A stretch of 63,999 bases of DNA, filler included, from Dirinaria sp. TL-2023a (taxonomy: Eukaryota): assembly GCA_051941275.1 (NCBI GenBank). It is 3 parts of 3 records of this genome, joined end to end, with 100 filler letters (N's around TTAATTAATTAA, not from the genome) between each part and the next. Parts side by side here need not be neighbours in the genome. Positions count along the whole stretch, not along the records: positions 44,235 to 63,999 come from JAVEBF010000315.1; 2 more parts are not named here. One strand, given 5' to 3'. Within the stretch, counting starts at the first letter, position 1. Each line of letters begins with the position of its first letter. Positions 6,136-51,731 of this stretch are shown piece after piece. Made by a program: the position numbers and the translations under genes. The notes under the pieces were generated by a model. The model was not told the DNA's origin. It saw only the letters and a list, made by a program, of their open reading frames with translations, and did not search any database.

Positions 6136-9100
6136 CTATGTCCCAGACACCTTGTTATCGTTTTCCTTGTTCAGTTCTTGCACCTGCGCGACATCCTCGA
6201 CGTCCCGTGACTTGAGGTTGGTCTTGTCCTTCCCCCTCGACGGCTTTTGAATCTTCACCTTGGTAAATTTGATCTCTTCATCCTCTCCAGTGCTTCGAGT
6301 CTCTTCTTTCCTCCACCCTTTGACTTCTTGCAGGATGTCTCTGAAACTCTCCTCCAGGGTGTTCATGCGTGCAAGCATCAGCTTGGACATCCGGTTCTGA
6401 TCGTCGCTCTCTGCAACAGCAGCTTGCTTGGCTCTCATAGCGCCTGTTGCAAAAGCCATTTGCGTCGCAAAACTGGAAGGGACGGCACCGACGAAACCAC
6501 CGCCGACAGCTTTGTTGTCTCCAAGATCAGATCCCAGATCCATGTTCAAGGAAGACTGACGGCCCCGGCCATGATCCAGCATGAGCATCCCAGCGAGGTC
6601 AGGGGCGGACTGGAAGAGGTTACGTTGTGGCAGAATGGGCCTGGCTCGAGCAGCTGCGAGGCTTTGACGCTTTGGCGTTCGTCTACCCGCTGTGACGGGG
6701 GTTAAGCTTCCACTATTCTTTGCACTGTTGCGAGCTGTAATGGCTTTTCGGCTGGGCGAAGATGACGAATCTGCAGTGTCGGGCTTTGGATCGTAGAGCA
6801 CAGTGTTGCTAGAAACATTCCTCGTATGTTTTACCTGCGTAGGTCCGCGGTTTGGCAAGTATGTGTTGCTTCTGCCTGCAGCAGCCTTGCTCGGTGCAGG
6901 AATCTTTCCATGGCCGGAGGATGCTGATGTCGATAAGCGCGGCATCTTCGAATCTGCTTTAGGCGTAGCTTGGAAATACTCATCATCACCAGATGCAAGC
7001 TGAGTATTAATGCCCTTTATTGTTGTTGGGAGATCGGACATGGCATTCTCGTCCTCATCGTTTGTTATCAGCTCGTCGTCGCCGTCTGCATCTGTCTGTT
7101 GCGGCAAATCTTCGACACTGACGGATGGCAGGTCATTGTTTTCTCTAAAGTACGATCTGCGTTGCAAGTCCTCGCCTGCGCCAAGCTCTTCCGGGTCAGA
7201 GGCGATAGACATTGTTGCTTGAGTCGTGTCTCTTTGCCGCCGTGGCCATTGACGCCTTCGCAGCTCCAACAGAGATTGGCGATGCGCTACTCTACGTGCC
7301 TCCAGCCTGTCCAACACATTTTGGTCTTCCTCATCTGGAGGAGGCCCTCTGCCGCTCGGGCCCATGGTGGACATCCAGCTATTAACGACATTACTCGTCT
7401 TTCGTCGCTCATGACTCTTCTGAGTGCCACGGAACGTACTGCCGCGGAAGGGCCGTCGAAAAACCTCATCCAATGCACGATCTTTCTGATGTGTAGCAAC
7501 CGAAGGCTCGCGTATGCGACCATGCCGCGGGCTGAAAAGGCGCATGCCAGGACTATCGAAAGCACCAGCTTTTAGGGAAGGGCGGCCCCTTTGCTCGATG
7601 ATTTCCGTGGGGTCGAAAGCAGGTCTACGCAAAAATACTCGTTCATAGGTATAAATAAAGAACAAGACTGGAAAGTGTGTGACCTTGATGACTGTTCTGT
7701 TTAGCCGCACAAATTGCCGGAACGGCATAATGAATCGCAGAGGCGTGAGGAGCCATGCAAGCACATTGGTGGGAGCGACGTATGAGAATAGAGCATCAGA
7801 TTTGACCAGAGATATTGCGTTTACTGCGAAGAGAAATTGATGCTCCTCATTTGCATTTTGCACAATGGCCATAAAGGAATTGGTGAGGACCGTTATCAGG
7901 ATCGTGACAATGAGGAAGTGGCAAATGAAGAGGAACAATGTCAGGATAGCTTTTCCTAGAACATTATAGTCGTCCCCTAGACGTTGATTTGGTCAGCAGC
8001 AAATACTATAGGGGCTCTCGAGTTCCTCATGGGGGTCAATAACGACTTGAAATACGAGCACCACCTAAAAGAGCATCGACTCACAAGTCTGCCACGCGGC
8101 TGGCGTGAAACCAAGCAAGATTTGGAACAAGGTATAAACGACTCCATTAGCATCCAAGTTATCGCTTCCGAACGACAATGTGAAAGCCACGAAGAATCCA
8201 CTGCAGCTGATGACGATAAGGATGAAGACAGCGACAAGATCCACTGCCATCATGCGGAATGCAATCAATAGTTGCGAGAAGTAGCGGTAATGATCGAGGA
8301 CAGAGAACAGGCGGGGGAAAAGCAAGACCGCATTAGCAGCCAGGAGATCGTATGCCATATCTTTAACATGGTGCTTCCGTGCGTCAGGCATTAATATCCC
8401 ATAGAGCCGTGTGCAGTAGTATGATACAAGCAGGAGCAGGATGCCAAGGTCGAAAGCATTCCAGAAACTCATGATATAGAGACTGAAGCCTTGCTCGTTG
8501 AATCCCACAACCTCATCAAGCATGAAGCCTGCGCTCCAAAACCAGAAAAACACCTCCAAAGTGCTAATGTTTAAAGATCTTTCAACCAGCACAGCAAGAT
8601 ATAGTCCGAGCAAGATTGCGAAGGAGCAAGTGGAGAGGGTTTGGCGGTACCGGGGGACTCGAAGCCTCGATAGCTTAAATAGTGATGCATCACGAGGATC
8701 GTACAGGGTCACAGTTCTACGGACTGCAACAGTCACTGGTTCGAGGTGATCCCTTTGTTTAGCCGGCTGCAGACGCTCTGGAGAAGCTTGTAATACTGGG
8801 GTTCTACTTGCTATAGCGCCATATCCTCTGTTCTGGTTGGGTACTACTTTCACAGGCGGACGATGAAGGTTGTCTGCAGCGGAATGAAACACGATAGATC
8901 CGGCCCATATAGCCTCAAGCTGCTGCACAACCACTGGATGTGCTAGAAGGCGCTTGGCTTGAGCTCTTATAGCAATTTCTAGTGCCGAAACACGAGCCGC
9001 CCGAGGCTGACTCGACGGCTGCAGTGTGTTCCAATTGGGACCGGGAATCGCGTTGCCACCATTTAGCCGTGAGAGACCTTGCAAAGGATAGAAGTCGTAG

Positions 9101-22019: not shown

Positions 22020-22119
22020 NNNNNNNNNNNNNNNNNNNNNNNNNNNNNNNNNNNNNNNNNNNNTTAATTAATTAANNNNNNNNNNNNNNNNNNNNNNNNN
22101 NNNNNNNNNNNNNNNNNNN
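22020..22119. other. Assembly linker 44N-TTAATTAATTAA-44N
   Basis: Exactly 100 nt, with a six-frame-stop spacer at 22064-22075. Identical to the linker at 44135. Confidence 0.97.
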
Positions 22120-22551
22120 GATCAGGGACGAGGACGAAGGGGGGGGAGGGAGAGTGTGTGAATAGAAGGAAAAAGTAATGTTTGATTTTGGTGTCTTGAA
22201 TTATTTTAGAGAGAAAGATAAAGAAAATCGAAAAAGCTTGATCGTTTGAGAAAAAAAAAAAAGAGAGAAAAATTAGCAATTTGAATGAAAGTACTGTAAG
22301 GATGGCGAGGGGAAAATTGATGCAAAAGTTCTTCTTTTTTTCTTTCTTCTTTCATTTAAAAAAAAGAAAAATCAATTCAACTCGCTGCTAAAGACATTAA
22401 CTGCTTACCAGCAACTACATGGACTACACGCACATAAGGTTGGAAGAAATTCCACGAACAGCATAAGAAAAAAACACACGCACACGCGCACTGTATGAGC
22501 AAAAAGCTCTTCCTCTCAAGCTGAATTAATACAATCTAAAGACCGGGAGCA

Positions 22552-25197
22552 CTACGTATAAATACTCTCGGTGTAAGCATTCACCTGCATCCCTTTCTCG
22601 GCCATCTCGGCATCCTTGAGGAAATCAAGCGGCATCCAGACCAAATGACCCCTGATCTGGTCCAGCTTCTGCCGCACCTCCTCCGCCGGCATGAACGGGT
22701 CGTGCAGGTGGCCTTGCTTGAATTTGTTGTGCCGCGGCAGGAAGGCTTCGTAGTCGTCGAAGGATTTGACTAGGTTGGTAGGGAGTATTAGATATCACTC
22801 TTCACTAGTAATCAGATGTATTTGATAGAATAAATAACTCACTATTGTCATCTGGATCAGCCCTGAACAGGTGTCGGAAGACCTGCGTATTCGTCGTCGC
22901 TTGCCCCGTCCATGTCTCCCACAGCTTCTCGTTCATCGGATCAATCACAAATTCCTCTTCCGGCCCTTCTCTCGGCTCGTTCATGCACACATCCGGCGGC
23001 TGCGCATTAGGATCCTTACTCGCATCCAGATCCTGCGCGGGTGCTAAGCCGAGATGTTCCCGCCACAGCAAGCGCCGCAGAGTCGCTGCATGTCGGCCGG
23101 CTTTGAACGGTTGCCCGTCCATGGTCGAATCAATCACGTCGTAGTCTTCCATCACGACGGTGAGTTCGGAATCATGGAAGCCAAGCTGCGACCGGTCGTT
23201 GATGTTCGAGGAGCCGCAAATCACGATGCGGTCGTCCACTATGCAGACTTTGCCGTGGATGTAGAGTTCTTCCTGAACGAAGTTTTCTTTCTCGCCCTCG
23301 AGATCGCCGGACCACTTCTGTTCGCTGACTTTGCCGCCGTTCAGCATGGCCGTTGAGGCAATCGAATCGGCACTGGGAACGTCATCGTCCCCGAGACCGG
23401 CTTCTTTGCGTTGGGCTTCAAACTTGCGCTTTTGATCTACCAAGCGCTCTTTCTCTCCGTCACCGGCATCGTCTTTCTTGCTGCCAGTGGTGTTCTGGAC
23501 CCCTTCACTCATTATCTCTTCGGCCTGGGCGCGCTGGACATCCTGATATTTGACGCCCGATTTCTCCTCCTGTTTTACCATAGCAGGAGTCTTGTTGAGG
23601 CGGTCGTAGGACCGGAGGTTGAAGATAAAGACATGATCACGAGGATTCACGCCCTCTTTCTCAATCTGAGCAAAGATTGAATGTTCTCCGCGGTGGATAG
23701 ATTTATATTGGTAGTCCATAATTGCGCGGGTGCCTGCCGCCGCGTCATCCCGTAGGTCGCCGGCGAAACCAGGAATGGACGGGATCATAATGATAACTCT
23801 GAATTTACGACCTTCTTTCCCGGCCTTGACACAGGCATCTACTATAGCTCTTCCGATTAGATTGTGCACTGGTGCTTGCTCTTCGCCGGTGGCAGTGATG
23901 AAGAACTGGTTCTCGATGTACACAAAATGTTGCGCATTCCTGATAATTTCGCAATAGGCGTTCTGGATGCTGTGTTCTGTCAAGATACCGCTGCTCCAGT
24001 CCGCGCTGCTTCGCACTATTTGCGCGTGCACCGTGCCTTGGTGCTCGTGCGCCCATGGCTTGGTTTCCAGAGGACTAAGAGGATGGCAGATGTATTCGCC
24101 GACGGGATGCTTCGGTCGCTGAACGGCTATCAGATCTTCATTCTCACCTTCTCGGCCTACCATGGTAAGCCAATCGAAGCCTTGCGTTCGCTTGTACTTG
24201 TCCCTCTTCACGAAGTTCCAGCGAAGAACGAAGTGCTCGGCGATATCATAGACGCAGTCGCCAATTACGCCCATTGCGACATCGTGCCACGGCATGCGAC
24301 CATAGTCTGCCTTACTTAACTCATTCGACTTCCAGTCCTCCACGGTTTGAAAGTCCATGATGCGGTTATTGTTGAAGTCCTGACCGGGAAAGAGTTCGTT
24401 GGCGACGCCCGCCGGGTGCACATCTGCCAGGGGATGTTGGCGGTTGTCCCACCGTCCGAAGCAAAGATCCAAGCCTCCAATGAAAGCCAAAGCATAGTCG
24501 ATGACGATGAACTTCTCATGATGCGCCCAGTAGAAAGTCATGTCCCCTGCATTCTCGAAGACATTGTGATCCGGATGCCTCATCACCGTAATATTCCCAT
24601 ACCCTGGAGTGCCTTCTGGACAGAGCGAATGTAACGCATGCTTCGTATGAGCGCTGTTGCAGCTGATGGCCTGCGCGACTTCCTTATACACGATTACATA
24701 GATCTTCACTCCGGCTTCTGCTCGCCTCTTGAGCACCTGGTCCAACCTCCACTCCTGATTATAGTACGGCGGCCGTCGCAAGAACAGCTCCGGACTCAGC
24801 CACCAGTCGGCGATATAGATGGTTTCTTTCGCCTTCTCAAGCGCGACTGAAACCGCCCAGAAATAGTCTCGTCCATCGACGTACCACTTGATCTTATTGC
24901 CATCTCTTTCCGGGGCGAAGGACTCGAAGCGGTGGCTCTCTGCGACCCGGGTGCGTTTCTCGTCGGTAGCCTTCTCATGCTCTTCGTCGTGACGATGGTT
25001 GGGATTGATGATATTGCCGAACTTGCCAACCTTGTTCTTGAAATGGATCGCGCCGACTTTGGCGTCGTAGAGGTGTGTTCCTGAGGGCACGTGCAGTTAG
25101 TGAGGGGAGCGCGGGGTTGATGGAGGGGTTTGGTACCCTTGAGCTGTTCACGAAGCTCCGGGAAAGGATGCTTGAATTTGTCTGCGAAGTTCGGCAT
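22552..25197 (-). CDS. Phospholipase D, short PldA-type without PX/PH domains (introns 25081-25136 and 22769-22842)
   Basis: Two HKD motifs (HHEKFIVID, IHGKVCIVDD), WWLSPELFLRRP, RMPWHDV, YIENQFF and GSSNINDRS. Last exon ends SIYT*. Confidence 0.92.
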
Positions 25198-25885: not shown

Positions 25886-28800
25886 TCATCGGCCTCGGCT
25901 GGATCTTCGGGTGGTGAAGTATTGAGACGAGATGCTGCGGGGGCTGGTTGGCGTCTGAGTGGGTGTTGCGATCGGGGCCATGCCTATCTTGATCTCTCCG
26001 ACCCTTCGTAGCAAGGCCTGCAGCGCCTGCCGTATCTCCACTCCAGGCTCCCGGTTCAGGAGCTCGACACCCAGGGGATAGAATGTCTCAATATGTCTCT
26101 CGAAATCCTCACGCGAGAAGTGCGTGTATCCTTCCATGACATCAACCACGACCGGTCTCCAAGCCTCAATATTCCGCGGCTGCGACTCATCGAGCAGTAC
26201 GAAGCTGCGAATGATGTCGGCGCAAAGGCTGTCCAAATCTTAGCTTCGATCCCGAAAAGAGCGAATCAGATACTTACGGTATGAGTGCAGCCTCGGTGTC
26301 AGCGCGGCTTCGCCTGCGCTCTTCTCCCTCGTCGTGGTACATTCGGACCAGTATGCTGACATACGTGGCCGCACTACCACTCTCCTGTTTGAGTAGATTC
26401 GGTGGCTGCTTCATGAACCCTTCTCGCCACAGCCTCATCCGGAGCTCCTTGTTGTTATTGAACCGCTTTGCGAAGGAGTAGCTGCCTTTCAGCAGTGACA
26501 TTAGTCGCAGAAGCTCCGAACTAGGGATCTGCGCGTAGACTGCATCATTGGAGAACAGCTCATTGACTGTCTCGATCATCAGTAACTGCAAAACGCATCT
26601 CGTGATTATTTTATTAAAGAAGCGCCGACGTGCCACTGTGACGACAACTGGCTGCTGCTGCAGATTGGACTGCGGACGGTAATCCTCCAAATCAGAAGGC
26701 GCAGATGAAGGCTGGGTGGAAGGTGGGGATGATGTTCGCTGCGTTATGGCGGAGTCAGTAGCCGCATCGCTGGCACCAGTCTCTATCTTTAGGCTTGCTG
26801 ATGTGGGGCTTGGTGGTGCCTCATCCGTTGGCGAGCCGGCTGCAGGCAAATGTACAGAATTTGCAGCACTCCCAGCTCGGTTACGTGATGAATCGCCGTC
26901 AGAGATGTACGAGGACTCAGATGAGGATGTTGCAGCAGAAAATAGTTGGTGAGCCGTCGTTCGGTCAAATAATTCGACGAAGCTGCTGACGATCTTGGTC
27001 CAGTGTTGCTGTTGGAACTTGGTGACGTTCTGCAGGATTAGTTGTTGCAGGCAATTGCTACCAATCCGTGCAATGGTGTCGTTTTCTTGACAGATACATA
27101 GAGCGAGGAGATCGAGGAACCTATCGAGCATGTACTCGAGCGACTGGAAGTAGTGCGTGAAGAGAGTAATCATGTTCCGTAGAGCTTGTATCATAGTGGT
27201 TGAAAGCCAGACTGATAAATCCTCGTGATTCTGCATCTTAGACATTTCAGACTTCGAGCGCAGCACCATGAAAATAGGGTATAGCAGCTGGCGCCAGAGA
27301 ATATCCCAGAATTCGGGCGGGAAATCCCCACCGTATCTGACGAGAGTATCGAAGAGATAGTTCAAAGCCTGCGATCTGACCTCAAGGTCGTCGCCTGTCA
27401 TGAGAACGTCATGGAAAGCAAACAGAACCGGGAACCAGAATTGCTCTTCTTGAGTCTGTCTGCTGGCTACCTTGGCAACTGACGCCCCTTCGAGGCCTGT
27501 ACCATTAGGAAGACTCCCAGATCTGTGCGATAGGGGGCATTCGGGTGTTTTGAGCATTTTTGGCACTGTCGACTTCAGCGTTTCAATGGCTGCCAATGAC
27601 TTCTTCTGGAACTTCAGATTCTTTGAAAACTCGGTCAAGCAAACAATAAGGTCGGCAAAAGCGCCTTGAGAGATTACGACACCGAAACGGGTGTTGTATA
27701 TTTGCGTGACATGATCGAAAGCGAGGTTTACGATGGCTTCTGTTGGATTGTTAAGCAAGGATATCCCGGTACGATCACACATCCCTTGATGACTCACCGT
27801 ACGGCTCCCGTGCAGCAACAGTGAATACCCCAAACATGGTCTTCCATCCCGATCGTATGTTCTCACCCCGAGCCTGTATCATCTGGATTAGGCATCGCAA
27901 CACCATGTCCTTGACCGTTACTGCAGTGGCGTTGCCGATGACATGCTCAAAGGGCTTTAGAAAATCTTTTTGGAATTTGAAACCCGGTAGCTCCTCCAGT
28001 TCCATGAAGCGCATCGACAACTGGCGCAGCGAGTCTAGTGCGAAGAAGACCACATTTGTGTTGGGGTGGCATCCCACCTCGTTGAAATGCTCACCCAAGA
28101 CTTGCCAAATATTCGTCCATTCGAATCTTACCCTGGTCATATTGTAGTAGCTTATCTCAACAAGTTTCTGCAGACTATACGTCCGAGGCGAGTCACTATG
28201 TCCTGATGATTGAATTTCCTGCCAGCTGACTTCGCTTAGAGCGCGGACGAAATGGACTATGGCATCTCCGGAGAGCTCGGCGGTACTGGTAAAGATACGA
28301 TCGACACCCTTGATCACATCAGGTGATCTGCTTTCTTGAGCGATTTCCAGTTGATATGTCGAACTCGAGCTCGGTGGTCGAGGACGAAGCGAAGGTGCCA
28401 ATGATTTTCTTGACCCATTCGAGGGTACCCTGTGAGGTGCGACTACCCGCGCCTTCTGTACATCAGGTAAGATGCCCTCATCCACCCCTCCAGATATCAG
28501 TTGGAATCGATCCAGCTGGCTAATGTTCATGAGGATCTCTCGCCATGCACCCTTCAGAAGGTTGCCCTCAGTCTGTGCTACTTCTAGTAATATCCTGAGT
28601 GCCTCAAAGTTCTTCGCCATCATTTCGCGTAGATTGCCAAGGTTGGTGAACTTCGCAAGGGCCGTTACGAAGGCTTCCCTCGGTGTCGCAAGATCAAACA
28701 AGCAAGCGATGCGGATAGACAATCGCAAGCCTTCCATACACGAACGAATGATTTCGATATTCTGAGTATCTTGCATCTGACCTGAGAGCCCTGTGAGGAA

Positions 28801-34229: not shown

Positions 34230-34479
34230 TGAGGTTTCGTACCTTAGGACTCAATTGGAGGGGGGGAAACCAGCAGCGAGGCTGTGCCTGATCGACCAAG
34301 CAAAACAAAGGGCGCGCCATCTAAAAATTCTCGAGATCCCTTTTCTACTTATTTTTGCTGCCTACATGTACCTCGTACCCCTTCTTTTTCCTTTTTTTCT
34401 TCTTCTTCCAAGTTAAGGTATCTAGAAAGCGGTGAACGGGCGTTCCTATCAAATCAAATGGCCGTTATTTCAGGTTCAC

Positions 34480-35130
34480 ATTTACAGCAACAGCAACAGC
34501 AACAAGGTTGGGGTGTGTAAGTAAAGCAAATTCAGAAAAAGTATCATCCGTCCGTCCGTCCATCAATCAATCTCCTTTCCTTCGTGTAATCCCATTAAAA
34601 AAAAAGAAAAAAAAAAGAAAGAAAGACAGCTCTTTTCTTCCCGAAGCCGCATAAATTCAATTCTTGCTTCAAAAATTCTACCTGCCTACGTGAAAAGTAA
34701 TCTTACCTAAGATATAATAAACTGCATGGATCATACGCCATTATCGTGCTCCTACTCATACTCGTACAAATATAAGTACGATCACAAAGCCCCATTTAAT
34801 CGACGACAATGTGTTTGAATTTTATTTACTTAGCTACCTTACTTCTCTGAACGTGATCATGGTGAATTAAAAAACATCGCCCTATCTTATGTCATGGTAT
34901 CACAAAGCCTTACCTAAGGGATCTGGCTTACCTGGCGAAAATGCATTTACCTTACGTAGGTAGGTAGGTGGAGGTAAGTAAGATTTACCTCGATAATGGT
35001 AGGTAAGGTAGACAGACGAACAACAGCCCGTCCGTTAGGACAAATGCTCCACCATCCATCCATCCACCCCCGCACCTCAATGAGCAAAACACAACAAAAA
35101 AAAAAAAAAAAAGGAGAGGGAGCGAGCAAG
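34480..35130. repeat. Low-complexity intergenic DNA: poly(A), CAGCAA, TCCG, TCAA, TAGG and CATC microsatellites
   Basis: Read directly between the convergent LAT1 and SWI6 stop codons. Confidence 0.8.
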
Positions 35131-41826: not shown

Positions 41827-44134
41827 ATGGTCCAATGGAAGAAACTCTTCACAGATGGCCCCAACAACAAGCACCATCTCCGTGACGAGATGCGCCGGCG
41901 TATGCTCTCATTCCTTCTACACCATAGCCCAATGCTTCTTGACTCCAATCCTCCATCCCACCCAATCTCTCCACCTCATAGCTAACGCCTCCCTTCAGTC
42001 CTCCCATCCAACACGGCCGACCTCCCATCCTCCGCCGTCCCCGCACGGACAGTCACAGCAATCGCTCTCCGCCTGCGCTACCAAATAATCTCCGTGATAC
42101 CGTGCGAGCTCGAGGAATGGAAAATCACAAAAGCCAATTCCCCAGTGATAACGCCGAAAGTGGTCCGCACGGCCAAAGAAGCCGGGTTCGTGGGCGGCGG
42201 CGGCGGCGCCAACCCCAACAAGAAAAAAGAAGACGGGGCGTGCGTGATCTACTGCCTGCTGGTGTGCAACCGGTGGTTCCGGCGCCAAGCGCTACTCGAG
42301 CTATGGGACGCGGACCTGCACAACGTGCGCGCCACGGCGTGCGAGGTGCTCGCGAAGCGGATCATCGAGGAGGAAGACGACGAGGGATACCTCCTGGAAT
42401 CGCTGCTCCTGAAACGGTACTCGATCGTCGTGAACGGGTGCGAGACGGAGCCGGCGAACGCTGTCGAGCGCGCCGTCGACCTGCACTGCCTGCGCGTGAT
42501 CGGCAGCAGCGGGTACCAGAAATGCATCTCATACCTGTGGCGGGGATGGCTGGTGCAGGACGACACCGACCCGAGCCGGTTCGTGCCCTACGCGCACAAG
42601 GCCACGACCACCTACTTCGCGCACGTGGACCCGGACCGCATGCGCACGCCCCTGTACCAGAACTGCGTGCAGGTCTTCTTCTCCCTGCTCTTCCTGGCGC
42701 TGTACACGGGGGCCATCAACACGATCAACAGCGGCGGCGACCTGGACATCGTCGAGGGCATCCTGTACCTCATGACCCTCGGCTTCCTGTGCGACGAAGC
42801 GGCCAAGCTGTGGAAGGTGGGGCGGTACTACATCGGGTTCTGGAACGTGTTCAACCTGACCCTCTACGCGCTGCTCGCGACCTCGTTCATCCTCCGCTTA
42901 ATCGCGCTCTCGCACCAACCCGGCGACGCCGTCCGCGTCCACTACAACATCCTGTCGTACAACTTCCTCGCCTTCTCGGCGCCCATGTTCTGGATGCGGC
43001 TGCTGCTGTACCTGGACACGTTCCGCTTTTTCGGCGCCATGCTCGTGGTGCTGAAGGTGATGATGAAGGAATCGCTCATCTTCTTCGCGCTGCTCGTCAT
43101 CGTCATGGTCGGCTTCCTGCAGGCCTTCATCGGCATGGATTCCGTCGACGACGACCGCTGGGTCACCGGGTTTATACTGCAGGCCATGGCCAACGCCGTC
43201 ATGCAGAGCCCCGATTTCGACGGCTTCGAGAAGTTCGCCTGGCCCTTTGGCATCGTGCTGTATTATATCTTCACGTTTGTGGTTATGGTCGGTGAGTTTT
43301 ACATTGCTCAGTGCGATGCAATGAATTGTTAGCCAGATCTCTAACTGAACCCGGGTTCTCTCATGCAGTCCTCCTGAATATCCTCATCGCGCTGTACAAC
43401 AGCGCCTACGAAGACATCACCGACAACGCCATTGACGAGTACATGGCGCTCTTCTCGCAGAAAACGATGCAGTTCGTGCGCGCACCCGACGAGAACGTTT
43501 TCATAGCACGTAAGCAAAAAACATCCTCTCTTTGATTCCATTAACCCTTATCTATCTATCTATTATTTTCTTTCCATCGAGCAAAAATAAAAAAGGCAAA
43601 AAGCAAAAAGCCATGCCACTGCGCACGCCATCCCGTCGTCTATTTTTGCAAACATCGGAAAAAAAGAAAAAGGAAAAAGAAAAAAAGAAAAGAAAAAAGC
43701 CCTAAGCCATAAATAACGCTCCATCATAGAAAAAGTGCTAACGACACAACAACGCCAGCATTCAACCTGATCGAGATCTTCTGCCTCATCCTGCCCTTTG
43801 AATGGTGGATGCCGACGGCCCGCTACGAGCGGCTGAACAACTACGTCATGGCCGTGCTGTACTCGCCGCTGCTGCTCGTGACGGCGTACATTGAGACGCG
43901 GCAGGCGCACGTGGTGCGGCGCAACCGGCGCCAGGGGGAAAGCGACGAAGACACGGTCGAGGAGTGGGAGCAGATGGATGCGGAGATCGATTTCGAGGCC
44001 GAAGGCTGGAGCAAGAAAGTCGAGGAGACGAAGCCGAACGTGGAAACCGACGCTGCGGTGCTGGAGGTAAGAGAGGTGATGACGAAAGTGGAGGAGTTGC
44101 TGCGGAAAGTGGATGAATTGAAGGGGAAGATTGG
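41827..44134 (+). CDS. YVC1: Vacuolar TRP calcium channel Yvc1 (4 exons; stop codon lost in gap)
   Basis: IALRLRYQI...IPCELEE, VIGSSGYQKCISYLWRGW, RFFGAMLVVLKVMMKES, LLNILIALYNSAY and VRAPDENVFIAPFNLIE. Confidence 0.93.
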
Positions 44135-44234
44135 NNNNNNNNNNNNNNNNNNNNNNNNNNNNNNNNNNNNNNNNNNNNTTAATTAATTAANNNNNNNNNN
44201 NNNNNNNNNNNNNNNNNNNNNNNNNNNNNNNNNN
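44135..44234. other. Assembly linker 44N-TTAATTAATTAA-44N
   Basis: Exactly 100 nt, with the spacer at 44179-44190. Confidence 0.97.
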
Positions 44235-44562
44235 TCATCTAAATCAAAATGAATATCAACTACTCGATTTATGAGAGACTGCTCTTTTGATCAAAAAAAT
44301 TATTTCTCGAAATTCAATTTCATCAGATTATTCGTGTCGTCAAAAATGTTTTTGTCTCGCTTTCGAAAAAATCAAAATAACTCAATTACGTTTGGAATTA
44401 TATAATCAGCGCTGATATCTCATCGCGCGAGAATAATCATATATCAATATAAAAATTTGAGTTCAATTTTTCGAAAAAAGAAATAATTGTAACGATTTTA
44501 AAAAAATTTGATCTCAAAAACGTCGCACGAAATCTCGTCTGTTTGAAAAACGAGATAATTTT
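44235..44562. mobile_element. AT-rich, heavily mutated (RIP-like) repeat relic
   Basis: Very AT-rich, no ORF, at a contig end. By hand count: 0 CC, 1 GG and ~18 CG dinucleotides. Confidence 0.65.
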
Positions 44563-44852
44563 TGTCAAAGACCCAACCTTGGTTAGATAGGTTTCCCAAT
44601 GGTAAAAGTCCCGGCAGCGCCAAAAGACTAACTAAACCAAGTCAAAGGACTTGGTGCCTATCTTACTACTTGGTTTTGTTTCCAGGGTCGTAACAAAGAA
44701 GAGAAGCTAGATACAATGGGGGGTCCCGGGTATATATGCGTGTGTGCGGGTGTGCGGGTGTCGGGTAAACACCCCGATCGGGTTAGCGCATTACCCCTGA
44801 GAACCCTGGGAGGTGTTGCCCCAGGTAGTATACCAGGTGCATGCTCGTAACA
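44563..44852 (-). mobile_element. Solo-LTR-like element (or two nested LTR fragments)
   Basis: Minus strand reads TGTTACG...TATATA...TTTGACA over ~290 bp with TG/CA ends. An internal second TGTTACG lies at 44689-44695. No target-site duplication was found. Confidence 0.55.
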
Positions 44853-45049
44853 CTCATTAGCAAAAATCGTCGTCCGCGTTCACGCGGCGTGTCTGTGCCT
44901 CGTCTGTAGCTTCGTTTCTACTACGCAGCTCCTCTAAACGAGGCCCTTCACCTCACAATTCTGATTGACTGAAAATATTTCGAATCGATTTTGTTTCGAG
45001 TTTTTATTTGAAACCTGTCTGTAGATTGATAGAAATATCAGAACAAAAA

Positions 45050-45151
45050 ATGAGTTACTCATGAGTTAACCCAACTCAACCCACCCCATTTAAGTTGGGT
45101 TCCTAGGTGGAAACCCAACCCATAACCCAATCCAACCCATTCCGCGGAGTA
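45050..45151. repeat. AACCC/GGGTT-rich array resembling a DNA-transposon subterminal region
   Basis: Multiple AACCC(A) units and inverted GGGTT units, with degenerate AACTC/GAGTT variants toward the left. Confidence 0.45.
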
Positions 45152-45509
45152 GATGAGATCGGTGTGTAGATGCCACCTTGGCAACATTCTACACGCTAAA
45201 TCCCTTCATTATGCCCCAGCTGAGTGCTCATTGAATCTTGGAAGGAGCATAAGTTCATTGAAGCCTTCGAGATGATGAGTGGATCGACGACCGTTGCCGC
45301 TAAACCCGATAACACTTTTATCATCCATGAGATCGTTCTTGAGCCATATTCTGTTCTGTTAAGAAAGCATTATATTGATTTTTCTCTATCTACTTGTTGA
45401 TTGTTCATCCTACCTCATGCTTTAAATCAATGGGGATGTCACTCAAGGAGATCGATTCGTTTGCTCAGTTCACTATAGATTCCGCTCGTGATGGGCTTTG
45501 TGCTCATCC

Positions 45510-48225
45510 CTACGTGTCCCCCAATTTTGCCCCAAAGTCCACGGCTAGAAGATTTGCGAGGATTTCCCAAGATGGCTCAGCACCTGTTCTGTGGACCCCT
45601 CGTAAGCCGGCAAGAATGAAGCTGTGTAGCTTTTTGAAAGTTTTGTGCATCTTGCTCACTCGATATACATTGGTAGTCTCATATGAGATATCAGGACATT
45701 GACCCTCTTGACCAGTTTCTACATCTTTGCGATTGCCTCCGCTCAATGAGGACGAGGCGGCGTCTCTATTGTATTGCCGAGACTTTCTTGGATGGGTGAT
45801 TGTGATATCTGAGGATTGGGGGAGGCGCATGGCAGTCCCGTGAGCCTCGGCAAATGACATTGCAAGGTCGAAAACCGAGATGATCCCTGTGTGAATAGGT
45901 GTGAGCTGTCGTGATAACAAGCATTGCCTTTCAAGCTGGAGTACATAATTCTTGTGTACCGAGATCATGTCGTCCAAGTCATTAGCCTTTGCTATGTCTT
46001 CGCGCATTCTGATTGTAGTTGCTGCGATGACTGGTCCAGTAAGGTATGCTAGGATCGCATTTGCAAACCATAGAAGGCGATGGCGCAGTAATAATGCGAG
46101 GCGAACCTCTGCAGCAGGGTTTTGACGCGTTGCTAGTGAGATTCGCCCAAAGTGCTGGTTGTCAAGTCTATGGATCACCCGCCGGCTTTGCACTAAGAGC
46201 ACGAAGACGCGCTGATAATGAACTAGTGCACCTGGTGGGATGATATTTGCTACCGCCCATGGAATGGCATAGGAAAGCTGCAGACTTTCAGAAGCCCTTA
46301 TCGATCTTTTTCGTTGCAAGAGGTCTAAACCATCTAAGTAACGAACACTGAGACGTTGACAAGCAGGGCCTAAGACAGGATCAAATGCCTCCCGGAAAAG
46401 CTGAGTCACTATTACACTGTCGGCCGAAGCGCCTTTTCCCCCGTCAATCATATCGAATAAAGAGTATAATGCATTGCTGCTCCGAGCGCCATCCCGCTGC
46501 AAATAGATATGCTCTAAAACGTTGAGCGTGTCATGCAAGCCGCAATGCGTCTCAAGCTGTTGCCGTAGTATCGTTGAAGATGAATAATATCTTTTTGTAG
46601 TCCATTTATTGAAAGCATAGTCGAAGAGCTCCGAGAACGGGGTCAATGTTCCATCACCTTGTTCTCCATTGATAATCTTAATGTCTAGACGATCACTCTC
46701 CCATGTCATATGGTGGCCATTCATTGCCTCATTTAGAGTTTTGAGGAACCTCACACTTTTCCCAGCATTAAATATTTTCTTCGCAGCCGTATGCACAAAA
46801 TTTGGTGCATAGGCTTGCCCATTCTCAAGCCGAGCCATGCTATACTGCTCATTCCATAAAGCTTCGCACGGGACTTTGCATTCGTTCTGCTTCACAAAGA
46901 AAACATTGTCAGACTTGACAAGATCTCCGTTCTCCATCCATGCTCGAATGGGCTTCAAATACGTTTCGAACCCCCCGAAGAAGATTTGCGCCATATCTCG
47001 ATAGCACTCGAGATCCCCATTTGCTTGAGCAGCACAGGTGCTAGCATAGAAGAACTCTAGGGCTTTGAAGGAGCTTTCGTTCTCATTTCTATCGTCCAGG
47101 CTCTCGGTTATTTTGGCTAGTTTTTGTATGATTCTACTTTTGTCCCTGATGCATGTGAGTAGATCAAGCAGGCTGATGACTCCTGCGGCACCATTGCCTG
47201 AAGTGAATGCTTCGAGAGCGAACAAATATCGAGTGAAGTCCGCCAGACGTGCAGACACCGCAGACTGCACGGTCTGGAGTATCGGAATTTTGGTCGGCTG
47301 GGTTACCCATTTTCGAACATTTGCTAGCATACTTCCAGTAACAGCAAAGCTATTGAGTAGATGCGTCAGAGATTCGGTCGAAAGATGGCTAAGGTGACAA
47401 TTCATTGAAAACAGATATCTGCCGTCTTCGAGCTGCGCGAAAGTAGATGTTGGCAGCCCCTGAAGCATGAAGAGTACGCCTCGACATAGCTGCATCTCGG
47501 TTGCTACGTGGCTCGAAGGCCGCCCTATCTGACACCCATCATCTAAAGACCGTGTCTCAAGCCTATTGCGCGATGGAATCTTTTCAACTGGGAGGATAAG
47601 GTCTTCGAAATTGATGGTCGAGTCTCCTGAGTCTTCGCCTGAGTCTATACTTGGGTCCGTGCTCTCGTCTGGGAAGGGTTGCTCATTTGGTTTGAAGCAC
47701 TCCTCTTCGTCGGATCCACCTGCGTAATCAACGCTGTCCCAAATTCCTTGCGCATTGTCAAGCGGGTCTTTCTCAAAGACCTCGGACCAAGTCAATGGAG
47801 GGGGCAATAGCTCGGGACCAGGTAGATTAGGATCCTCGACATGAGCATTCTGGGAGGGTCTGTCCGATAGGTGTAGGAGAAGGCACAGAATTTCCGGGTT
47901 GTACTTGTTCGGATAATTTGTGAGTTCGTTCAAGCGTATGCGGAGAGCGTCTGCCAAGCCGTCATTGTTATGTATCCTGAATTTTTCTTCCAGCCCAGCC
48001 AAACGTGATTCGACCTCCAAAGCGTCTGTGGACACTGCACGCGAAGTCGATAGAGTTCGTAAGGTGGCCAGCGTCAGTCTTTCGGGTTTTAGTTCCTCCT
48101 ATTTTCGCGAATTTAATTAGGTAGATTTCTCCTGGGGTCTTCCCCAACGAGCTCACCGTGAGACCACCGGCAAGGGCACGGACGAGATCTTCCGTTAGTG
48201 ACTTGATTGCCACCGATCGTGTCAT
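45510..48225 (-). CDS. GCP5: Gamma-tubulin complex component (Spc97/Spc98 family, GCP5-like), intron 48099-48156
   Basis: LAGLEEKFRIHNNDGLADAL, LCRGVLFMLQG, KIFNAGKSVRFL, YAIPWAVANII, HRLLWFANAILAYL and DLDDMISVH. Confidence 0.82.
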
Positions 48226-48600: not shown

Positions 48601-49967
48601 ATGGCTTTCTCCAGGCCAATCCGAGTGTTGGCAGGCATATCGACTTTCCTCTTTCTTTTCCTGATTTTCCAGGTAATCAGGTCGCCGCCGTCCTTAGCAC
48701 CTCCGACAGGCTCTGGCGATAAGCTTCCTGAAATGAAAAATGATCCAATGAACGATCGTCCGTTGGCCCCAACTATCGATAAGTTGCGAGCTGGCTAATA
48801 TGGGACAGCGACTGGCGAGCCCAAGGGCAAATTGTGGAGGGCGGATGACTATGCGCCGGATAACGCGAATGCTCCCCGGATCAATGCTACGATTCTCTCC
48901 TTGGTTCGGAATGAAGAAATCGATGGGATGATTCAATCCATGAACGACCTCGAGCGGACGTGGAATTCCAAATTCAACTATCCCTGGACTTTCTTCAACG
49001 ATGTCCCTTTTACGGAAGAGTTCAAAAAACGAACAAGAGCCGCAACCAAGGCTAAGTGCCATTATGGTAAGCCTTACGCTTTGCGACTCCAGCCTGGACT
49101 CAGGCGTATAGCGAGCGTTCCTAACGAAGACCTAGAGTTGATACCTAAAGAACACTGGGCCGTACCATCGTGGATCAATAACGACCTTTTCGAAGAGTCT
49201 GCTGCAATACTAGAGGAGCAAAAGATTCAGTACGGCAAATTGGTCTCCTACCACCAGATGTGCCGCTGGAACTCTGGAATGTTTTACCGTCATCCGGCGC
49301 TGCAGAATGTTCGCTACTATTGGCGTGTAGAACCTAAGATTCATTTCTTCTGTGACGTTGATTACGACGTCTTCCGCTACATGCAGGACCATAATAAGAC
49401 CTATGGTTTTACCATTAATCTTTATGATGCACCTCAGTCGATACCAACGTTGTGGCCAGAAACCCTCAAGTTCCTCGCCGCGCATCCCGAATACGAGAAC
49501 AAGTACAACGCGAAGGACTGGCTGATTGATAGCAAGAGGCGGCCCGAGCACAACATCAAAGCGAACGGATATTCAACATGTCATTTCTGGAGTAATTTTG
49601 AGATAGCAGATATGGATTTTTGGAGGAGCAAGCCCTACGAAGATTATTTCGAGCATCTTGACCGGGCTGGAGGATTTTTCTACGAAAGGTGGGGGGATGC
49701 ACCAGTACATTCTATTGCTTTAGGTCTGTTCGAGGATGCGAGCAAAATCCACTGGTGAAATATCCAAGATCAGCAGGTATCGATGCGTATTTGCTGACCT
49801 CATTTCCCAGGTTCCGAGATATCGGCTACCAGCACATACCTTATTTCAACTGCCCAAATTCGCCTAAATGTAAAGGATGCGTGAAAGGACGCTTTACCGA
49901 TGGCGAGAAATGGCTTTATAAAGAGGACTGTAGACCAAATTGGTTCAAATATGTGGGGATGGGTTGA
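48601..49967 (+). CDS. Alpha-1,2-mannosyltransferase, GT15 KRE2/KTR family (Ktr5/Ktr7-like), 4 exons
   Basis: Type II signal anchor, NATILSLVRN, SYHQMCRWNSG, YYWRVEP, CHFWSNFEI and YERWGDAPVHS. Confidence 0.92.
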
Positions 49968-50494
49968 AGAAATTAATGGACAGATCTGTCAACACTACAT
50001 GTATTATTCAGGCGTCTAGTTCCGGTACCATCATTTGGAATTTGAGTCTATAAATATCTGGGTTAAAACTATCCAAAGGCTCCAGCTTCTTCCAAATAAA
50101 TAAGTACACATGGCTGGTGCAGTTGAGCCAGCTTTATCCACTTTGCATTGTCGTAAGCATAAGCTGTCACATCCGTATTTCCCATCCGCATTTCAGTACA
50201 GAGGCAAAATGGGCATGATGGTAGCATGAGAAACTTCGGCTATCTCTAAAAGGGCATGTAGCCCGGACACGCAGTCCCGGCGCTTTCGAGGGCACTGCTC
50301 GCTGTATTGTGCAGGACGTTCGAAAGATGAGGATTCTCAGTGATGAACATTCCCTTGTCTACACTGCATAAATACATAGCCATCCAGTGACACGCTTTCT
50401 TCGTACCTCTTCCGCTAATTGGCCAGGCCAGCATCATAACGCTGCATTATTGGCGCGAATTTGTGCACGCCTCCTTTGCCAGCTCTTCAGAATT

Positions 50495-51383
50495 TCAGGG
50501 CTCCTCCTTTGGTTTCTCATCTTCGGGCAGCCAATTCTCCTTGTCCCTATTCGATGAAAAGATAACACCAGGGTACAAGTCTTCTTTCAAACTCACGCCC
50601 AGCTCTTCCCGCAAAGTTTTGAGCTCACGCAGGTACGCCTGATATTGGGCTTTGTTCTCCACTTTTACCTTGATACCTAGGCAAAGAAATTTTTAGCTAG
50701 TGTCCCTGGTATCATGGCCGTGCACGGAAGCGATTAGTGAGAGTTTGGTCACCGAATCTACCGACATGATGCGACCGCGCGATGGAACTCGTAAAGCTCG
50801 TTCAAAATAGATGTAAGGTTGAGATGCTAACCTTCGAACACCCGTACAGCAGTGGGGAAATCATTAACTCTACGCGCAGCTTTCAGAGCGGCTGCTATGA
50901 CGGAGACAGAAGGGACGAGATCGTAGGCGAAAGCGTTATTCAGATTTCGCTTCGAATGCAGGACAGATCAGTTGACAAAATAGTATAAGGTTGTAGCACG
51001 GCTTTCCGGTTGATTTCGTACCTGTAGCTCGAACACGTCTTGGACATTGTTGAACTCGTTCTCGTAGCTGAATCGAACAAGGAGCGTTAGTACAACGATT
51101 TATTCTTGCTGCAACAGCGAATCATGGTCTCACTTGACCTCAGCCGCTGCATAAGAGTTACAGCATTGGATATCCGTACTTACCGCGCAGTGAACTCTTC
51201 GAAGCTTTCGTCTTGATCACCAGCACCGCCAGACGCTTTACTCGCTGTTGTGCTAAACTCACAGCATCCAGTGCCCGCTGTACGTGCTATTAGGATCGGC
51301 AATCGTCGAGCCGTTGAAGGTGGCCTTCGCACAAGGGAGAGCTGTGTACGCGCCGCAAGGCGAAAGAATGATTCGGAAGACAT
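50495..51383 (-). CDS. COX6: Cytochrome c oxidase subunit VI (COX5A family), 4 exons
   Basis: ESFEEFTAR-YENEF...DVFELQ-RNLNNAFAYDLVPS...AALKAARRVNDFPTAVRVFE-GIKVKVEN. Introns 51068-51183, 50950-51021 and 50677-50831. Confidence 0.93.
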
Positions 51384-51731
51384 TGAGTAGAGAATGAAGC
51401 TACGGGAAGCTGAACAAGATATCAGCACCTCAGGAAGCAAGTCAATGATCAAATAACCTTCGTTACGGCTCTCAGGTACGAGGTACCTGGACTAGCGCCA
51501 ATTTGCTGACACAACTCATGACTGGCCCTCGATTAATCATGCCCTGAGAATGCATATTTATCACGTGATCAGTTCATGAATAAGATGCATCAAAGGTACA
51601 TAATTCGTTAGTGGTAAATAAGCGAGCTAAGGTACGGTAAAGCCTGCTCGCGGATTACAAAATAATTCAGACACTAAATGCGCCAAGCCTCACCCAGAGT
51701 GTTCAAATTACCCAGATCAACGCCATAAGTT

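Follow-up and report, generated by a model that had tools for sequence, protein, structure and literature searches.

Repeat-induced point mutation (RIP) depends on RID and/or DIM-2 and takes place in dikaryotic cells before meiosis. In Neurospora, it follows the context hierarchy CpA > CpT > CpG > CpC and spills over into flanking DNA. A different enzymatic route to C>T changes is represented by APOBEC3G, which deaminates the 3' C on one cDNA strand and gives GG>AG and TGG>TAG.

In the published descriptions of fungal transposon hypermutation, CpA is the prevailing context. According to the accessible parts of the respective papers, CpA dominance was reported with RIPCAL, for which a CpC>TpC index had also been defined (PMC2621366), and for rRNA pseudogenes (PMC5555474). 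A survey of ten genomes lists CpA, CpT, and CpG signatures (PMC4352252), and a kingdom-wide survey from 2025 concludes that RIP-like defences share a preference for CpA (PMC12543289); the term 'CpC' is absent from the text of both surveys, as far as this text was accessible. Exceptions from the CpA context are the TpCpG/CpG-type transposon hypermutation of Microbotryum and the rusts and the CpG signatures of Tuber, as described in the available sections of PMC4352252 (see also PMC3318451). Among the best full-text matches listed, no description of CpC-biased RIP was found.

For lichen fungi, the literature that could be accessed in part contains several relevant reports. Cladonia rangiformis shows RIP with sharp boundaries and has homologues of RID and DIM-2, and RIP is named as a possible cause of fragmented assemblies (PMC12542154). 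Large RIP-affected regions are described for Xanthoria (PMC13486527), and two lichen fungi are assigned to the 'moderate RIP' class on classical indices (PMC7882544). AT-rich regions of lichen fungi that bin separately are reported in a paper which, in its available portion, does not mention Dirinaria (PMC9907504).

Here, we compare with these systems a short AT-rich block which terminates a contig of Dirinaria sp. TL-2023a, a lichen fungus, and a nest of dead transposons from another fungus.

Layout of the window and neighboring genes

The window, that is, the whole stretch of DNA that was analysed (63,999 nt), consists of three contigs placed end to end. They are joined by identical 100-nt linkers of the structure N44-TTAATTAATTAA-N44, which are located at 22020-22119 and 44135-44234. 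The third contig covers 44235-63999 (19,765 nt) and originates from a metagenome-assembled genome of a lichen fungus (Dirinaria sp. TL-2023a). The block under study directly follows the second linker, so that it marks the physical terminus of a contig distinct from the preceding one. Because of the linkers, features on either side of them are no genomic neighbors, and the block is not positioned between two neighboring genes. The features in this region are:

44135-44234, no strand: artificial linker (N runs at 44135-44178 and 44191-44234, with TTAATTAATTAA between them)
44235-44572 (338 nt), no strand: AT-rich tract poor in CC and GG, a candidate for CpC>TpC hypermutated DNA as judged from its composition (28% GC)
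44573-44959, no strand: non-coding stretch in which normal composition is regained (50-nt bins; no ORF of at least 80 aa; no Rfam match)
44960-45062, no strand: another short block rich in AT, with a similar trend in composition but non-homologous (one CC, no GG, three TCG)
45510-48035, minus strand: gene for GCP5 (gamma-tubulin complex component 5), the nearest gene on the same contig (ORF; Pfam PF17681/PF04130)

The product of 45510-48035 shows 100% sequence identity to a hypothetical protein of Dirinaria sp. TL-2023a at NCBI. The block is separated from this gene by about 1 kb of non-coding DNA, which carries 3.9 tandem copies of TGCGGGTG at 44737-44766 (detected by Tandem Repeats Finder) and degenerate AACCC-like repeats (AACCCAACCCAT units) at 45068-45143. 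No Rfam family matched anywhere in 42000-47000. On the other side of the linker, a gene for a YVC1/TRPY1-type vacuolar calcium channel (42094-44134, plus strand; Pfam LHD_TRPY1 and YVC1_C) is truncated by its contig end.

Composition of the block

The region 44235-44562 (328 nt) contains 126 A, 50 C, 41 G, and 111 T, corresponding to a GC content of 27.7%. The depleted dinucleotides are CC (0 observed vs. 7.6 expected), GG (1 vs. 5.1), and TA (21 vs. 42.5), and those in surplus are CG (18 vs. 6.2), TC (34 vs. 16.9), and GA (22 vs. 15.7), so that both strands are affected. In sum, the block has 1 CC or GG where 12.7 are expected, and 56 TC or GA where 32.6 are expected, together with only seven GC dinucleotides. 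The sole GG is found at 44394-44395; otherwise, the tract is free of CC and GG through 44572. The sequence-only reading, from which this analysis started, had given 0 CC, 1 GG, and about 18 CG for 44235-44562, and the recount returned exactly these values.

This composition is real and highly non-random. When the block was shuffled by mononucleotides, a CC+GG count of 1 or less was obtained in 1 of 200,000 shuffles, a CG count of at least 18 was likewise obtained once in 200,000, and a TC+GA count of at least 56 was not reached (0 of 200,000). When the positions of strong and weak bases were kept and only the identities of C and G were shuffled, CC+GG did not fall to 1 or less in any of 200,000 trials; shuffling of the A and T identities yielded a TC+GA count of at least 56 in 0 of 50,000 trials. 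Pairs of two strong bases occur 26 times (25.2 are predicted from the composition), and CC and GG together account for one of these 26 (binomial P 3e-7). Among 3142 sliding windows of 328 nt, the block holds rank 1 both for the depletion of CC+GG and for the excess of CG.

The edge of the block is sharp. The number of CC/GG per 50 nt is 0, 0, 0, 1, 0, 0 up to 44534 and then 4, 8, 6, 11, 11, 13. Values of 4-13 are thus found over 44535-44834, followed by 2-3 in each of two bins up to 44934.

Copies of the block and other AT-rich DNA

Sensitive blastn searches with 44235-45510 revealed no other copy within the 64-kb window. The block as well as 44573-45510 were also compared by blastn and tblastx to 17 fetched loci which encode relatives of GCP5, without any match. 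When the block is read with TGA as Trp, its longest ORF has 84 aa and has no match in a protein database search. Pfam searches with six read-through frames of the block returned no family and hence no transposon domain. The block had been called a repeat relic on first sight, and this designation is not borne out by the searches: no second copy turned up in the window, in the 17 loci, or among the database proteins.

The first reading had also pointed to similar DNA at about 44960-45070 and 22170-22300, the latter of which is located on a different contig from the block. Neither is homologous to the block according to blastn, and neither is significantly depleted: 44960-45062 has 1 CC+GG vs. 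4.2 expected (P 0.08), and 22191-22408 has 5 vs. 9.6 expected (P 0.085). The claimed similarity was thus given up. Furthermore, a lack of CC/GG depletion in other AT-rich blocks of the genome had been named as evidence against the first reading. Two such blocks of the window are not depleted: the AT-rich windows 22121-22568 and 34501-34928 have normal CC+GG counts (e.g., 23 vs. 22.4 and 24 vs. 21.8 expected). To demand depletion elsewhere asks too much, however, of a process whose targets would be repeats alone.

Two stretches with normal GC content, 50861-51400 and 26861-27200, have about half of the expected CC+GG (e.g., 17 vs. 36.2), with CG being slightly increased. The stretch 50861-51400 is non-repetitive, lacks an ORF of at least 100 aa, and resembles gene sequence with introns.

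A transposon nest with the same signature in another fungus

The set used for comparison is the DNA around relatives of the GCP5 gene on metagenome contigs. It comprises 17 loci from few fungal species, the GCP5 relatives having 30-45% protein sequence identity. One of these loci, L013 (contig JAABUS010000362.1), belongs to a fungus which is a distant relative of Dirinaria (GCP5 38% identical). The position of the gene beside GCP5 is conserved between Dirinaria and the L013 group (48835-49970, minus strand, in the window and L013:8096-9257), the DNA being 72-77% identical.

L013:1-6450 is a 6.4-kb AT-rich nest of dead transposons, in which CC and GG together occur 10 times, compared to about 290 expected occurrences (3-4%). 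Within L013:1-6200, CC and GG occur five times each (rho 0.03-0.04), and the counts of TC (449) and GA (474) indicate that both strands are equally affected. The rho values are 1.47 for TC, 1.36 for GA, 0.58 for TA, and 0.58 for CG. With RIP indices of 0.63 and 1.65, this region is not RIP by both classical measures. Runs that are free of CC and GG extend up to 3486 nt, and the last of them ends at 6450, which represents a sharp boundary. L013 has about 97% identity to seven sister loci downstream of about 6585 and nothing in common with them upstream of this position. The tract in L013 is therefore lineage-specific.

The region L013:3-1376 is the relic of a Ty1/copia reverse transcriptase (Pfam RVT_2; copia RT-RNaseH), which can be read in a single frame without any frameshift. 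Its 458 codons include seven TGA and one TAA stop codon, and encode no Gly, one Pro, and no Trp. In the remaining tract, weak traces of a Ty3 integrase and a DDE transposase (DDE_3) were detected, all of them below the Pfam cut-offs. A pair of long terminal repeats was not found within L013:1-6700.

Direction and context of the mutations could be determined by comparison of the relic to P0112, an intact member of the same family (77% identity over 306 aa, ungapped). C>T or G>A changes alone can explain 65 of the 69 amino acid differences. All 18 Gly residues of P0112 are changed in the relic (16 to GAN, one to AGA, one to AAC), and so are all 11 Pro residues (eight to TCN, three to TTC, none to CTN) and both Trp residues, each to TGA. 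The same pattern is seen in 17 mutated copies: Pro is changed at 119 of 120 positions and Gly at 223 of 223, while other changes are rare (His>Tyr 2%, Cys>Tyr 4%, Leu>Phe 5%). Arg is retained in 45% of the cases, has turned into Gln or His in 21%, and into Cys or Trp in 26%. From these codon changes, the rule CpC>TpC / GpG>GpA is deduced, which applies to both strands. In this copia family, the CpC context is saturated, CpG is hit in about half of the cases, and CpA and CpT are hit in 2-5%. A C>T process that acts on repeats and prefers CpC, including its direction and its context, is thus demonstrated for the L013 nest.

A protein search with the L013 relic retrieved 116 relatives. The fraction of Gly plus Pro is at most 1% in 51 of them, intermediate in 11, and normal in 54. 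Among the relatives without Gly and Pro, 43 (from P0089-P0139 and others) still carry 3-14 Trp residues. Apparently, the Gly- and Pro-poor relatives which contain Trp are gene calls on mutated transposons in which TGA was read as Trp.

Application of the CpC rule to the block

The block carries several directional marks. The ratio of TGA+TCA to TAG+CTA is 24:2, compared to 1.8:1 elsewhere in the window and 4.2:1 in the L013 nest. For GAA+TTC relative to AAG+CTT, the ratio is 16:4 in the block and 1.0 in the rest of the window. CCG+CGG are absent from the block, while TCG+CGA, its most enriched CpG word, occurs 18 times (4.7 expected). CG is preceded by T in 18 cases, by A in 10, by G in 8, and never by C. 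The 50% share of T at this position compares to 52% for T and C combined in the background, which matches the prediction from a CCG>TCG conversion. The excess of CG (18) over GC (7) is also expected, because the CpC rule destroys GCC and GGC and never CG. The ratio (CC+GG)/(TC+GA) is 0.018 in the block, as opposed to 0.817 in the remaining window; two relics of L013 have values of 0.026 and 0.004.

In a forward simulation, the CpC rule was applied in silico to AT-rich DNA of the window (34301-34851; native GC content 0.35-0.45). The simulated sequences agree with the block in GC content (0.28-0.31 vs. 0.277 in the block), in the number of GC dinucleotides (4-9 vs. 7), and in TC+GA (48-61 vs. 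56), and nearly agree in CA+TG (33-39 vs. 31). They depart from it in CG (11-13 vs. 18), in CT+AG (33-40 vs. 23), and in AC+GT (25-35 vs. 20).

Comparison of dinucleotide log-odds profiles gave correlations of r = 0.88 and 0.83 between the block and the two L013 relics, which are dominated by CC and GG. The corresponding values for the other AT-rich blocks of the window are r = 0.25 and -0.13.

Two points of the initial reading can be evaluated on this basis. The proposal of a CpC-preferring mutator is supported in part: it is borne out by the L013 nest, where the process is demonstrated, and the block, for which the searches found no copy to align, shows the same directional marks. The statement that CG is kept is correct for the block but does not extend to L013, in which CpG-bearing Arg codons have also been hit in about half of the cases.

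Origin of the block

We consider it probable that the block, a single 338-nt stretch, represents the margin of a repeat tract that escaped assembly and was mutated by a CpC-preferring RIP-like process. On this reading, an AT-rich tract derived from a repeat would have been hypermutated from C to T on both strands, with C before C as the preferred target. Saturation of the CpC context would remove all CC and GG and lower the GC content, while CpG and CpA would be spared. The conversions would be CCG to TCG, CGG to CGA, TGG to TGA, and CCA to TCA. A short-read metagenome assembler would be unable to extend through the repeat, so that the contig would end at the block. From the shared marks, we infer that the block arose by a process of the L013 type; it would also be repetitive within the Dirinaria genome. 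The enzyme may be a homologue of the cytosine methyltransferases of the RID/DIM-2 type which, by analogy to Neurospora, would act before meiosis.

The block and L013 are not equivalent. CpG in the block has kept its genomic density in full, while it is eroded by the process that acted on L013. If the block and L013 reflect the same system, they differ in the handling of CpG or have gone through different numbers of mutation rounds.

As an alternative, the block might be ordinary AT-rich intergenic or terminator DNA which is composed of A/T tracts and palindromic words, such as a decayed array of binding sites, and which was never exposed to a mutator. The block does have A/T runs (AA+TT 107), abundant small palindromes (TTCGAA, TGATCA, GATATC, CGCGCG), and weak internal direct and inverted repeats (73-87% over 15-21 nt), and neither a transposon domain nor a second copy was found for it. 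Moreover, CG is at three times its expectation, which a process of pure loss would not create. In the sister loci of L013, an AT-rich run without CC/GG extends over 75-144 nt and has no surplus of TC/GA, showing that shorter runs of this kind can arise without a mutator. In the block, however, the loss of CC/GG, the gain of TC/GA, and the prevalence of TGA/TCA over TAG/CTA all agree with the CpC rule. The block does not contain a tandem array (none was detected inside it by Tandem Repeats Finder), its predicted DNA fold is unremarkable (z -1.23), and the pattern is missing from the other AT-rich intergenic blocks of the window. We regard an origin as ordinary intergenic DNA as unlikely.

Leakage of the mutator is an even less likely explanation, and we judge it improbable. 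In this case, the block would be unique intergenic DNA beside an unassembled repeat, from which a CpC mutator had spilled over. As described above, the block is reproduced fairly well when intergenic AT-rich DNA of the window is subjected to the CpC rule, and the lack of a transposon domain fits unique DNA. The spill-over of RIP in Neurospora would also fit this explanation. Spill-over is not seen beside the L013 nest, however. The unique DNA downstream of this nest has 62 private substitutions. C>T and G>A changes make up 23 of them, and 6 of these 23 fall on CpC, which is no more than in the sister loci. Sharp RIP boundaries, as described in the accessible part of the Cladonia paper (PMC12542154), also speak against leakage.

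It is very improbable that the block is an assembly artefact, with foreign or erroneous reads having been joined to the end of a fungal contig. Its location at the extreme terminus of a contig assembled from short metagenome reads would be compatible with a chimera, but a context-specific composition is not produced by sequencing errors, and a distant blastn search of a plasmid collection with the block gave no match. Because the signature is otherwise seen here only in fungal transposon DNA, a chimera would move the phenomenon to another place rather than remove it. A mitochondrial or vector origin of the block was rejected.

RIP indices were evaluated with the thresholds quoted in the available part of PMC3897900, where RIP is indicated by TpA/ApT above 0.89 and by (CpA+TpG)/(ApC+GpT) below 1.03. 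The block has values of 0.49 and 1.55, which are on the non-RIP side of both thresholds. There is no loss of CpG or TCG from the block (rho 2.89 for CG), and the rho values of CA (0.89) and TG (1.01) are close to 1. The known processes can hardly account for the block, even though it is AT-rich with a sharp edge and RIP with RID and DIM-2 homologues has been reported for lichen fungi in the accessible parts of PMC12542154, PMC13486527, and PMC7882544: canonical CpA-type RIP is rejected by both indices, the decay of methylated CpG is excluded because CpG is enriched, and APOBEC-like editing of cDNA is rejected by the symmetry of the strands and by the change of the 5' C of CC in L013.

Significance

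For the Dirinaria window alone, the claim is a modest one: a single 338-nt scar at a contig end. If the CpC rule applies, Gly, Pro, and Trp codons are erased from transposons, with every TGG being turned into TGA. Gene calls on such mutated transposons in which TGA is read as Trp would be a source of false proteins and of false genetic code assignments in metagenome catalogues. By the standard RIP indices, such tracts are classified as 'not RIP', and surveys of fungal RIP would therefore under-count them. With regard to the question of what sets the sequence context of RIP, a lineage whose preference is reversed would provide a natural contrast for comparing enzymes of the RID/DIM-2 type and their target recognition.

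Comparison with known systems

The L013 nest shares several properties with RIP as known from Neurospora crassa and other Pezizomycotina. C:G to T:A changes are saturating, affect both strands, and are not accompanied by indels. The mutations are confined to transposon copies (at least 17 of one copia family), adjacent unique DNA is spared, and the boundary is sharp. As with RIP, the resulting AT-rich tracts break assemblies. The difference from RIP is in the context: CpC is saturated, CpG is hit in about half of the cases in L013, and CpA/CpT in 2-5%, whereas the published shared preference is for CpA. Because TpA does not rise, the classical RIP indices miss mutation of the CpC type.

With some reservation, we put forward as a possibility that lichen-forming fungi, including Dirinaria, have a RIP-like defence in which the 5' C of CpC is mutated first and to saturation, CpG second or never, and CpA almost not at all. 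Such a CpC-first order, held with the same reservation, would be the reverse of the Neurospora hierarchy.

The TpCpG/CpG hypermutation of Microbotryum and the rusts and the CpG signatures of Tuber resemble the cases described here in that C>T changes in fungal transposons occur in a specific context other than CpA. In contrast to the block, (T)CG is removed in the Microbotryum/rust type, while the block keeps CpG and is enriched in TCG/CGA (18 vs. 4.7 expected). The CC context and the conversion of Trp codons to stop codons are reminiscent of APOBEC3G. Unlike in the case of APOBEC3G, it is the 5' C that is changed in L013, and this on both strands, which results in GG>GA and TGG>TGA (16 of 18 Gly to GAN, 8 of 11 Pro to TCN, no Pro to CTN).
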